Shown here piece after piece: positions 1 through 5,880 of a stretch of DNA of 35,087 bases. The stretch is from a virus, in UHGV virus genome UHGV-0145327; one strand, written 5' to 3'. Under the pieces are notes generated by a model. It saw only the letters and a list, made by a program, of their open reading frames with translations, was not told the DNA's origin and made no database searches. The position numbers were made by a program, and so were the translations under genes. The first letter of the stretch is position 1. Every line of letters begins with the position of its first letter.

Positions 1-694
1 TATCCTGCGTCCAGGCGTTGTACCACGGTGTATCTGTAATTTTAAATAACTCTCCTTGGATAAAATCTTCAGAAGCATAAAAAAGAGGCTGACCCGGTAT
101 TCTCTCAAATAAAAAACGAGCATTTTTAAATCGACTGACATCTGGAAGAGTTGATACTTTAAAAGTAAGCCCTCGCCCATCTATCTTTTCACCACCTGTT
201 GCAACAGAAAGTAATTCTGATAGAGCTGATGTATCATCATGAACACCATCACCAATAGCCCCCCAACCTCTTACATCATAACTGTCTCTCCATCTTGCTA
301 TCTGAAGTTTTGGGTATTTATTCGCTCCATCTGGGTCTTCTAATTGCTGTCGTAACTGATCAGGATCATACTTCAGCACATTCGGAAAATAGAACTGCTG
401 CACACCATACGCATCATAAACAGCCATAGAATGGCCTTGCACAGTTACGAACTTGGCAATCTGCCCGTTATATACCGGATATCCGGCAGCGTTAATGATG
501 ATTGGTTGCGAAACAGGAACGTGAGAGCCGTCTTCATTCTCTACATAAACCTGAATCTGGTTTTCTGGATTTACCGGGTCAGTGTCAATTTTACCGATAT
601 AAATTTTGCCATTGGCTACGGCTTTAAAAGAACGCGCCATAGTGAAGAGTTGCGATGGCATTGATACGATCACATTGGCTGTAATGTCTGTCAT
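1..694 (-). CDS. Tailspike protein, N-terminal portion only (gene continues past the left edge of the window)
   Basis: Minus-strand ORF starting at ATG 694..692, not in the ORF track because it has no stop in the window. My translation begins [59 protein letters not shown]..., which matches the P22 gp9 head-binding domain as I remember it. After roughly residue 115 the sequence no longer resembles P22 gp9. Confidence 0.85.
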
Positions 695-751
695 TTAATT
701 TGCTCCAGATACAAGGAATCACCGCAGCATGGCTACGGCAATGCGTCATAG

Positions 752-766
752 AGACCACAGTGGTCT
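752..766. promoter_or_regulatory. Perfect 15-bp palindrome AGACCACAGTGGTCT, candidate Mnt operator between the divergent mnt and tailspike genes
   Basis: Seen directly: AGACCAC-A-GTGGTCT is its own reverse complement. It sits 64 bp upstream of the mnt ATG and 58 bp upstream of the tailspike ATG. It shares the CCAC-N-GTGG core with the P22 mnt operator as I recall it. Confidence 0.5.
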
Positions 767-829
767 TATTGTGGATATAACCAGTAGATCATATGATGCC
801 GATCCACTTACAAAAGTGAGGCATCAAGA

Positions 830-1081
830 ATGGGAAGAGATGACCCGCAATTTAATCTGCGGCTACCTTACGAATTAAAGGAAAAACTAAAACAGCGAGC
901 CAAATCCAATGGCCGCTCTCTTAATTCAGAATTAGTTCAGATAGTGACTGATGCTGTATCAAAGCCATCCAAAATTTCAGGCTATCGAGACGATGCGGAA
1001 CGCATCGCTGATGAGCAGTCTGAACTTGTTAAGAAGATGGTGTTTGATACGCTGAAGGATTTGTACAAAAAACCCACCTGA
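830..1081 (+). CDS. mnt: Mnt-family ribbon-helix-helix repressor (83 aa)
   Basis: Translation MGRDDPQFNLRLPYELKEKLKQRAKSNGRSLNSELVQIVTDAVSKPSKISGYRDDAERIADEQSELVKKMVFDTLKDLYKKPT is co-linear with P22 Mnt as I remember it, including the C-terminal ...DAERLADEQSELVKKMVFDTLKDLYKK segment. Confidence 0.9.
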   Translation: MGRDDPQFNLRLPYELKEKLKQRAKSNGRSLNSELVQIVTDAVSKPSKISGYRDDAERIADEQSELVKKMVFDTLKDLYKKPT

Positions 1082-1090
1082 CGGTGGGTT
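1071..1090. terminator. Hairpin AACCCACC-tgac-GGTGGGTT between convergent mnt (+) and the 322-aa gene (-); likely bidirectional terminator
   Basis: 8-bp perfect stem with a 4-nt loop that contains the mnt stop codon; A-run upstream and T-rich sequence downstream on the plus strand. Confidence 0.45.
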
Positions 1091-1096
1091 TCATAA

Positions 1097-2065
1097 TTAG
1101 ATTTCTGGTTTCATTCTTCCGAAAACCTTTTCTATTCCTTTTTCGTATTCTTCTCTTGTCTCACTCATCGCTGCGACACCAAGAAGCTTACCGATATGCT
1201 GACGCAAAGCCTTGACACCAATTTCAGAAAGGAACAGATGCAACTTATCAGATTGTTTTCCGTTCTCGTCTCGGCTGGCTCTAATTTGTTCAAGGATTTT
1301 ACCTTTACTCTTTGCTAGCGGGGTGTATATCTGCATGTTGGTTAGCTGCCCAAAACGAATAGGCCGTCCTTTCTCTGGCCTATTCAGGCCGTACAGTCGA
1401 TACCACTCCTCGTATAGCTCATCTGGAAATTCCTTTTCATATTGACGAGCCTCTTCACGAACAAACGCTTTGAACTCGTCAATGACAGCCTGAACTTCTG
1501 GACGATAACCAGCAAGCGCATACGCAACCCCCTTAATTCCCGCCTTAGCGGAGGCATTAATAAGTCTCTGTGCTGCGGCGGCTGCCTTTAACCGTGATTG
1601 TGGTAGATCGTCATTATCTTTGGCTTCTATTAGTGCCCTACCAATATCAACAATTGCTGTAATGTCATAACCTAACGCTTGATGAACGGTTTTAGACTTC
1701 GAAGTAAGTTGAAATTTATAGGGATTTTCCATTTTTCGCTGCAATTCTAGATCTCGGTATTTGCTCATATACTGAGCGCCAAGCAGTTGATCTAAATCCC
1801 TGGCATGTTCACCAATCCCTAGCAACTGAGATAATCCAGTTTTCGTAACAACGACAGTTTTCGACTCGTCATCCAGTACATAACATTCAGCATCAATGCC
1901 AAAATCATCTAAAAAGTTACCACGATGAGTTGCCCTGAGAATCTTACTTTTCCATCTTGCAGCAGCTGCTTTCTTTGCTATTTCAGAACGCTGCTCTTTA
2001 GTCAGCGACTTTGCGCGAGCGATCCCGCCCTTAGCTTTCCCTTCGCCACTTTTCTTTTCAGTCAT
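1097..2065 (-). CDS. Hypothetical protein, 322 aa, lysine/arginine-rich N-terminus, no family recognised
   Basis: Long minus-strand ORF. I place the start at ATG 2065 (MTEKKSGEGKAKGG...), which has an AAGGTG Shine-Dalgarno about 9 nt upstream; the upstream extension in the ORF track (MLVCVYSV...) has no ribosome-binding site. No catalytic motif recognised. Confidence 0.6.
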   Translation of the reverse strand: MTEKKSGEGKAKGGIARAKSLTKEQRSEIAKKAAAARWKSKILRATHRGNFLDDFGIDAECYVLDDESKTVVVTKTGLSQLLGIGEHARDLDQLLGAQYMSKYRDLELQRKMENPYKFQLTSKSKTVHQALGYDITAIVDIGRALIEAKDNDDLPQSRLKAAAAAQRLINASAKAGIKGVAYALAGYRPEVQAVIDEFKAFVREEARQYEKEFPDELYEEWYRLYGLNRPEKGRPIRFGQLTNMQIYTPLAKSKGKILEQIRASRDENGKQSDKLHLFLSEIGVKALRQHIGKLLGVAAMSETREEYEKGIEKVFGRMKPEI

Positions 2066-2221: not shown

Positions 2222-2611
2222 GTGAAGCAATTTCTTACCGCTATGTTCTTATTCATATCTTTTGGGGCTACAGCAGAGTGCTGGGTCGTTGGAGATATGC
2301 GCGGAATAAGCTATTCAGAACGAAATAATTTCCATCCGGAAGAAGATGGTTTTAGTGGAACATTCATCATTAAGACAAACGGTGAAGATGCCAGCATCAC
2401 ATATTCTGGGACAGATGCGGGCGGCATGGCTTACAAAGCATTGTCTAAAAACTCCATCATAGGAATCGGCGCGAATGGCGAAACTCAACGCGTTATCGAC
2501 TCATGGGTAATACATCCTACTGGAACAGTTTTAATGTCAAAAACCATTTCCGGTTATGGAAATATGGATTCAACCAAAGCTTTTGTTGGAAAAGTAAAAA
2601 GAAAATGTTAG
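2222..2611 (+). CDS. Hypothetical secreted or periplasmic protein (about 129 aa) with an N-terminal signal peptide
   Basis: AGGAGG at 2211-2216 followed by in-frame GTG at 2222. Hydrophobic N-terminus VKQFLTAMFLFISFGATAEC; mature part has Cys near both ends. Plus-strand gene sitting inside a minus-strand late region. Confidence 0.6.
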   Translation: MKQFLTAMFLFISFGATAECWVVGDMRGISYSERNNFHPEEDGFSGTFIIKTNGEDASITYSGTDAGGMAYKALSKNSIIGIGANGETQRVIDSWVIHPTGTVLMSKTISGYGNMDSTKAFVGKVKRKC

Positions 2612-4477: not shown

Positions 4478-5880
4478 TCCACCGTAAATTGAATGCCTGA
4501 TTTTGAGGTATATGATCCAACCTGATTCCGTGGTTCTCCTGAAGGTGTCGAATCTTGCGCTGGTGCTGCGTCAGTATTCATTGACATATACCGCTTAACG
4601 GCACTCCCCAATGATTCACCTTTTTTAACATCCAACCCCAATATCTGACCGCCATTACGCGATTGTCCAGGGTTGCCATTCGCGCTCATCCACTCGGCTT
4701 TAAACTCATTAAACTGCGCGTTTCGTCGCTCAAGGTTTGCCATTGCATCAAGCCATCTTGCGACCGTCTCAGGGTTATCCATGTCAGTTGGTGCACCCTG
4801 ACGAACGATCTCAACGTCTTTATCCGTTGCGGGGCCGGGAGGTAGGAATTTAAGAACCTGACTGTTAACAAGGGCATTTTGGCGAATGCGCAAATCACGC
4901 AATGTCGTATCGCTTCCGGTAAGTTTTGCGAACATGTTCTGTGCGTTACCGAACAAACCTGTCGTTGGTTTTTCTGTTCTGAACTGTTGAGCAAGCGCAC
5001 TCATAGAATTGGCTGAGTTTGATGATGCTGTGGCATTGTTTACAGCCGTCTCGATGCCTTTTTCCATGTTTACTGACAGCTTAGGTGCTTCGCTAATCAA
5101 CTGCTGAGCCTTTTCCTGCGCTTGCTGCATCTTAAACCCGAACTCTTGCTGATCCAGAGCCAAGCGTTGTGCTGCGATATTGTGCCCAGTCATTGCTGAC
5201 TGATAGGAAAGGTTTTGCCCTCTCGCCTGAAGTGCTTCACCAGCCTGATTGCTGCGGATTGTCTCTGCCAGCCTGCCTCGGTCAATTTCACGACCAGCCA
5301 TCTTGTCCTGAACATTGAAGTAATCAATCGGACCAAGAGCAGCCATTCCAAGGTGATCAACAAACTCACCAAATCCTGAAGGATTCTGCTGATACATCTG
5401 AGCAACGTTATTAGGGTCAACACCGACGCGCGCCAGCTCATTGGCGTTGTTTTGCAGCCATGATTGCATTGCTTCTGGAGACGATGACGCAAGGCGTGCG
5501 CCAGCCGCTAAGGTGCCGATAGAATTACGCTGATCTTCATCAATGAATCCCATGCCTTTACGAACGGATTCAATCTGGTCTGGATATTGAGTAGCCAACT
5601 GACGCAAAGCTCCGCGATCACCAGACGCATAAGCATTAGCGTACGCCTGCTGAAATTCTTTCTGCCGCTGAGCCTGCTTTTCCTGCTGAAACACCCCTGC
5701 AATACCTGAAAGACCTTGCAAAGCAGTCAGCCCAACATTGTTAGCGCCTGAACGCTCAATATCATTGTTCTGCCTGATAAGCTGAAGCGTATTGCCGATG
5801 TCATTTACGCTCGGAGCGTTTGAGTTGACGCCGCCGATACCAGCTAACAATCCGCCATTTGATCCTTGCCAAGTAGCCAT
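4474..5880 (-). CDS. Internal virion ejection protein, P22 gp20-like (468 aa)
   Basis: Size and synteny with P22 gene 20 (about 470 aa); start codon overlaps the upstream gene. Confidence 0.8.

Follow-up and report, generated by a model that had tools for sequence, protein, structure and literature searches.

The window analysed here is a 35,087-nucleotide stretch of virus genome UHGV-0145327. Near its left end lie a tailspike gene and, divergent from it, a gene for a Mnt-type repressor (Table 1). The tailspike gene is truncated by the left edge of the window. By Pfam, its product starts with a head-binding domain of the P22 type, after which comes the N-terminal portion of an endosialidase, and the gene shares 97% DNA identity with the K1-specific siaK1 tailspike gene of phage CUS-3. 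Direct reading places the tailspike ATG at the reverse complement of 692-694 and the mnt ATG at 830, with a spacer at 695-829, so the 135 bp that a preliminary description gave between the two start codons is correct. On its other side mnt converges on a P63C-domain gene (1097-2065, minus strand), which lies in the variable ‘ant moron’ and has a terminator hairpin in common with mnt. This hairpin folds with −14.2 kcal/mol on the plus strand (z −3.0) and −16.2 kcal/mol on the minus strand (z −3.5), with a U-run 3′ of it on the minus strand. The same gene is also a neighbour of complete immI regions, as seen in phage 611R6 and locus L054; the presence of the P63C gene is therefore independent of the loss of ant.

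Table 1 Features of the tailspike-mnt region, in window coordinates
Feature	Position	Strand	Sequence elements	Basis
Tailspike gene, 5′ part	2..694	-		Pfam Head_binding E 6e-67, End_N_terminal E 2e-37
Tailspike-leader hairpin	718..742	-	core CCGUAGC-CAU-GCUGCGG	11-bp stem in centroid structure
Mnt operator (predicted), Gln6 class	752..766	.	AGACCAC-A-GTGGTCT	position and conservation
Pmnt	769..797	+	-35 TTGTGG 769-774, 17-bp spacer, -10 TATGAT 792-797	
Pant relic, decayed	774..802	-	-35 TCGGCA 802-797, 17-bp spacer, -10 TATATC 779-774	
Shine-Dalgarno of mnt	818-821	+	GAGG	
mnt, 83-aa ribbon-helix-helix repressor, Gln6 class	830..1081	+		homology searches, Pfam, alignment
Bidirectional terminator hairpin of mnt and the convergent P63C-domain gene	1070..1091	.		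fold energy

The tailspike-proximal part of the spacer is shared with other phages. The leader hairpin lies within the ‘boundary sequence’ common to P22, HK620 and CUS-3, spanning the conserved leader (695-738); the same element is found upstream of P22 gene 9, and the annotation at this place in CUS-3 is bsq1. BLAST homology to CUS-3 and HK620 stops at 738, the mosaic boundary. G-U pairs in the hairpin form solely in the tailspike-sense RNA, and the spacer classes show compensatory differences in it. In P22 the tailspike gene is transcribed by read-through from the late operon. As the default expectation from P22, the tailspike gene of the window is most likely transcribed in the same way.

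The repressor was described at the outset as strongly P22-like, and its 76% identity to P22 Mnt bears this out. It matches the Mnt structure 1mnt over residues 3-77 (E 3e-34) and the tetramerisation domain structure 1qey (E 3e-12, 28 of 31 residues identical), along with the Pfam families Arc (E 3e-22) and Repressor_Mnt (E 2e-18). The N-terminal ribbon-helix-helix domain and the C-terminal tetramerisation domain of the Mnt family are thus both present. A weak Mnt-like tblastn match inside gene 20 (5128-5322, E 0.001) was judged spurious.

Residue 6 of Mnt contacts the half-site region around position 5, and the His6 to Pro change is the classic altered-specificity mutant. Aligned with P22 Mnt, the window protein has Gln in place of His6, the substitution that the preliminary description had noticed; two further changes in the strand are Phe9 to Leu and Met11 to Leu. 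Knight and Sauer reportedly assigned the base contacts of the Mnt strand to Arg2, His6, Asn8 and Arg10, and in the alignment the window protein keeps all of these except residue 6. The P22 Arc strand, PQFNLRWP, is nearer to the window strand (PQFNLRLP) than that of P22 Mnt (PHFNFRMP) is, and Gln6 occupies the position of Arc Gln9. The codon usage of the strand differs from that of arc, and we therefore see no sign of recent gene conversion. Unlike Arc, the window protein has an N-terminal arm, the C-terminal tetramerisation domain and an operator of the Mnt type.

The absence of arc and ant, noted from the reading frames, held up when the 35-kb window was searched with P22 Arc and Ant by tblastn: Arc matched mnt only. 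No tblastn match to sieA or orf59a was found in the whole window, and an Rfam search gave no family at all, hence no sar RNA. The arc-ant pair was also sought in the adjacent DNA, represented by the 99.4%-identical prophage of E. coli G749, and was not found there; past the tailspike gene this prophage, which sits at argW, carries solely an acyltransferase gene and the intS integrase gene. The window lacks arc, ant, sar and the strong Pant of a complete P22-type immI.

Between mnt and the tailspike gene we confirmed the perfect 15-bp palindrome reported earlier (AGACCACAGTGGTCT, 752-766), with 7-bp arms around a central A and a core, GACCAC-N-GTGGTC (753-765), that is conserved in relatives. 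The P22 operator core with which it had been contrasted, GGTCCAC, agrees with the operator annotated in BK000583. The P22 mnt operator is AGGTCCAC-N-GTGGACCT, from which the window palindrome differs symmetrically at ±5 and ±7; the ±5 change, from P22 to the window, is T:A to A:T. Read in the mnt sense from the operator to the Pmnt -10, P22 has AGGTCCAC-C-GTGGACCT A TTGAGA (17) TATCAT and the window AGACCAC-A-GTGGTCT TA TTGTGG (17) TATGAT. The distance from operator centre to Pmnt -35 is equal in the two, which makes the window palindrome the positional homologue of the P22 mnt operator. According to a published summary of quantitative data on Mnt, the best half-site is GTGGACC and position 7 has an effect of less than 3-fold, so the meaningful change in the operator is that at half-site position 5.

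By itself the palindrome is unremarkable. The whole window contains 5 palindromes whose arms measure 7 or more and whose loop does not exceed 1, against 4.5 expected, and the chance of one arising in a shuffled 135-bp spacer is 0.015. What gives it weight is that it sits at the homologous position and is conserved among relatives. Across 26 distinct spacers of mnt-only (‘solo’) loci, both 6-bp arms are nearly invariant, while each of the four bases is found at the centre, and substitutions and indels distinguish the left flanks. The right arm extends into the stretch immediately upstream of the Pmnt -35, and its conservation could be due in part to the promoter. The pattern GACCACNGTGGTC occurs once in the window, and a search of the whole window for further operator copies with up to two mismatches gave none, with no second cis target evident. 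On this sequence evidence, binding of the palindrome at 752-766 by the Mnt tetramer has most likely persisted.

The P22 entry BK000583 places the mnt operator, Pmnt, Pant and the arc operator in the interval from mnt to arc. The window Pmnt, directed away from the tailspike gene, aligns with the P22 Pmnt annotated there (TTGAGA-17-TATCAT), and its hexamers are kept in all mnt-only lineages (TTGTGG or TTGAGG, 17 bp, TATGAT or TAAGAT). A consensus promoter scan of 500-2300 found no promoter on the minus strand. It also missed Pmnt itself, its threshold being too strict for the 3+5 matches of this promoter, and hexamers were instead compared at homologous positions. At the place where P22 has Pant (TTGACA-17-TATATT), the window and phage L read TCGGCA-17-TATATC, the largest solo subclass TCGGCA-16-TTGCAT and a second solo lineage CTGGCA-17-CATATC. 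The TTGACA -35 is present in 9/9 complete immI regions compared, against 0/7 mnt-only representatives scored. Complete regions of both specificity classes (see below) combine it with a -10 of TATATT, TATTAT, CATTAT, CATCAT or TATCTT, in which the second base is A and the sixth is T; the one exception is L242, a complete region whose -10, TATAAC, lacks the final T.

The preliminary description had proposed that a promoter directed into the tailspike gene is now under the control of Mnt. In this account the operator overlaps a working tailspike promoter, and Mnt represses the tailspike gene in the lysogen and allows an early burst of its expression on infection. The geometry inherited from P22, with the operator covering the Pant start, speaks for it, as do a weak hexamer pair at the correct spacing (TCGGCA-17-TATATC) and the presence of TATGAT on the minus strand also, ATCATATGAT being palindromic. 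In P22, moreover, Pant transcripts continue towards gene 9. It has also been proposed in print that the ant moron influences how often transcription from the late promoter gets to the tailspike gene. Against this, the -10 is without the invariant final T, and two of the six -35 positions have been lost; the largest solo subclass has TTGCAT here, so that no promoter-like element is conserved on that strand. With Pant decayed in all solo loci scored and the scan negative, the proposal was not borne out, and we regard it as improbable. A weak, non-consensus minus-strand promoter may nevertheless be present in the spacer sequence.

We compared about 125 related loci overall; a profile scan of IMG/VR gave 80 loci. 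All 43 IMG/VR loci whose Mnt starts MGRDDPQFNLRLP (Gln6) lack arc and ant, have mnt adjoining the tailspike gene and carry GACCAC-N-GTGGTC; phage L, phage 720R6 and the window are like them in all these respects. All 37 loci whose Mnt starts MARDDPHFNFRMP (His6) have ant, and most carry GGTCCAC-N-GTGGACC, the exception being a CUS-3-like group without a cognate site in cis. Complete mnt-operator-arc-ant regions of the Gln6 class came from a pattern scan and a second protein scan (hits in an exact-pattern scan of IMG/VR were mostly due to chance, mnt, arc or ant lying nearby in only 29 of 120 loci). Their Mnt starts MARDDPQFNLRM and has an unrelated C-terminal domain, and their operator is AGACCAC-C-GTGGTCT; the pairing of Gln6 with GTGGTC was seen in L226-L232 and L240. 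It recurs in more distant repressors (SREDPQFKLRMP / MSREDPQFKLRMP) associated with three GGACCAC-N-GTGGTCC sites. In at least three protein backgrounds, Gln6 thus occurs together with T at half-site position 5; His6 occurs together with A in two backgrounds, those of the P22 type and of a Pluralibacter prophage.

That residue 6 and the operator had changed together was at first only hinted at by the comparison with P22; the pairing across about 125 loci and several lineages now makes co-varied specificity well supported at the sequence level. The number of independent events is small, as the Gln6/His6 split among P22-like phages is essentially one between two clades. No complete immI of the Gln6 class was found in E. 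coli genomes or GenBank phages, and the nearest cultured relative of the Gln6 complete regions is Erwinia phage Midgardsormr38. An Arc-family gene beside ant in Stx phages was considered as a target class and rejected, since the equivalent position is Lys and the repeats are different.

Other Mnt-like repressors, in phage 611R6 (L003:3330-3660) and in L088, L092 and L090-L104, have other residues at positions 6 and 8 and correspondingly different upstream palindromes: Pro/Ser, Pro/Gly, Lys/Met and Gln/Arg at residues 6/8 pair with half-sites such as GTGATA, GTGTAG, GTGACAT and GTGTGAC. These repressors and their palindromes form a ready natural data set for ribbon-helix-helix recognition rules.

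Within the solo clade, mnt has a dN/dS of 0.07-0.13 at a dS of about 0.5, and its reading frame is intact in 47 of the 47 solo loci examined. The window and phage L have reached saturation at synonymous sites of the DNA-binding domain (32/37), yet they agree in all of the first 17 residues. The dN/dS is 0.05 in a second solo lineage (L236-L241), whose left operator arm is degenerate. The contiguous mnt-tailspike arrangement is found in 104 of 5426 complete E. coli genomes, and also in many Salmonella phages. Such strong purifying selection means that solo mnt is no decaying relic: as judged from substitution patterns, the gene is maintained by selection. Operator conservation indicates that the cis operator is maintained in the lineage of the window but not in every lineage.

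It is very improbable, then, that mnt and the palindrome are merely left over from a deleted immI and have no present function. That possibility is raised in the phage L paper, in its passage on the mnt-only region, and the decay of Pant and the solo lineage with a degenerate left arm would fit it. It is contradicted by purifying selection acting across solo lineages that have diverged to synonymous saturation, by the uniformly intact reading frames, by the conservation of Pmnt and by wide retention in Salmonella and E. coli phages and in the E. coli genomes counted above.

Two further observations concern these lineages. In L236:2360-2500 and L241:2360-2500 the right arm, GTGGTCT, and Pmnt are intact beside the degenerate left arm, which in L241 reads GTTCCAC and is nearer to the P22-class GGTCCAC than to GACCAC. 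When positions 830-1081 of the window are compared with phage L (L001:2812-3060), synonymous sites of mnt are saturated, and the 135-bp spacer upstream is about 95% identical; this combination implies either a recombination junction at the mnt start or very strong constraint on the control region.

CUS-3 (L247:4728-5257), L049-L052 and L085 carry tandem ribbon-helix-helix genes, the second of which encodes a P22-type, His6 Mnt. The GGTCCAC-N-GTGGACC operator is absent throughout the 5-kb CUS-3-like loci, and from its sequence context this second Mnt looks like an orphan repressor, able to act only in trans.

Solo Mnt might likewise act mainly in trans, repressing the antirepressor promoter of superinfecting phages and so protecting the prophage, with the cis operator incidental. 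We consider this possible, though not likely. It would account for the selection on mnt in the lineage that has a degenerate left arm in cis; complete immI regions sharing the operator class do occur in nature, and the CUS-3-like loci offer a His6-type Mnt that has no cognate operator in cis. On the other hand, no ant phage of the Gln6 class was found in the E. coli and Salmonella collections searched, and the lineage of the window has conserved its palindrome in cis. We also put forward, quite tentatively and as a rather unlikely proposition, that the Gln6 solo Mnt is a stand-alone trans-acting prophage defence that has outlived its own antirepressor and the promoter it targeted in cis, and that is retained because it silences antirepressor promoters of related phages entering the cell. 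Gln6/GACCAC and His6/GGTCCAC would then constitute two natural immI immunity specificities that do not cross-react with each other and depend for the most part on a single residue and a single base pair in each half-site.

Our preferred explanation is that the spacer probably contains the control elements of a ‘solo-mnt’ ant moron, which is what is left of a P22-type immI minus arc, sar and ant. Retained are a selected mnt (Gln6), an operator of the cognate type (GACCAC-N-GTGGTC) and Pmnt, directed away from the tailspike gene. The operator abuts the Pmnt -35 as in P22, and the strong Pant that it formerly blocked has decayed. With Pant gone, Pmnt would no longer compete with a strong divergent promoter, and the operator could at most serve autoregulation of mnt and the occlusion of weak residual leftward transcription. 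Retention of mnt would then probably reflect a function in trans in the lysogen; a speculative candidate is that Mnt silences the antirepressor promoter in incoming phages whose operator belongs to the same class.

An mnt-only ant moron is already on record in the published literature for ST64T, ST104, Para1 and phage L. The window has the same make-up, with gene 16 on one side of mnt and the divergently oriented tailspike gene on the other, and no arc or ant. It is thus a further example of this published arrangement, in an E. coli K1 prophage. It resembles ST64T, ST104 and L (and also SE1 and ST160) in the order gene 16, variable gene or genes, mnt and divergent tailspike gene; in its 135-bp spacer, which aligns without gaps and with few differences, about 95% identical from the operator to the ATG; and in the Gln6 N-terminus (MGRDDPQFNLRLPYE) and the GACCAC-N-GTGGTC palindrome. 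It differs from them in its E. coli host, its K1 endosialidase tailspike and the P63C-domain gene that lies downstream instead of orf62. Mnt's C-terminal domain is P22-like in the window and diverged in L, with 70% identity overall.

Compared with P22 immI, the distance from operator to Pmnt, the divergent orientation relative to gene 9 and the tailspike leader are shared, whereas the window lacks arc, sar, ant and Oarc, and its Pant is decayed. The complete immI regions of the Gln6 class (L226-L235, L240, L242) share with the window the Gln6 N-terminus and the spacing to Pmnt, but they have kept arc and ant and a consensus Pant (TTGACA), and the C-terminal domain of their Mnt is unrelated.

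The phage L paper, in the part dealing with its mnt-only region, offers either another function or a remnant as the explanation. To this we add the evidence for selection, the two classes defined by operator and residue 6, and the consistent decay of Pant. Taken together, selection on mnt, conservation of the cognate operator and Pmnt, and the consistent loss of Pant point to function. The comparison also defines at least two natural specificity classes of Mnt and its operator, distinguished by residue 6 and half-site position 5, which would be the natural counterpart of the classic engineered altered-specificity work on Mnt. Their relevance lies mainly in phage immunity and ribbon-helix-helix recognition; no new kind of system is involved.

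A separate feature was observed on the far side of the P63C-domain gene. Positions 2067-2156 hold four copies of the 10-mer ATGCTTGCAT, two exact and two with one mismatch, in alternating orientation and spaced 24, 32 and 24 bp. They lie in the divergent promoter region between the P63C-domain gene and a gene for a small secreted protein (2222-2611, plus strand), and by its sequence the array resembles operator sites for a putative regulator.
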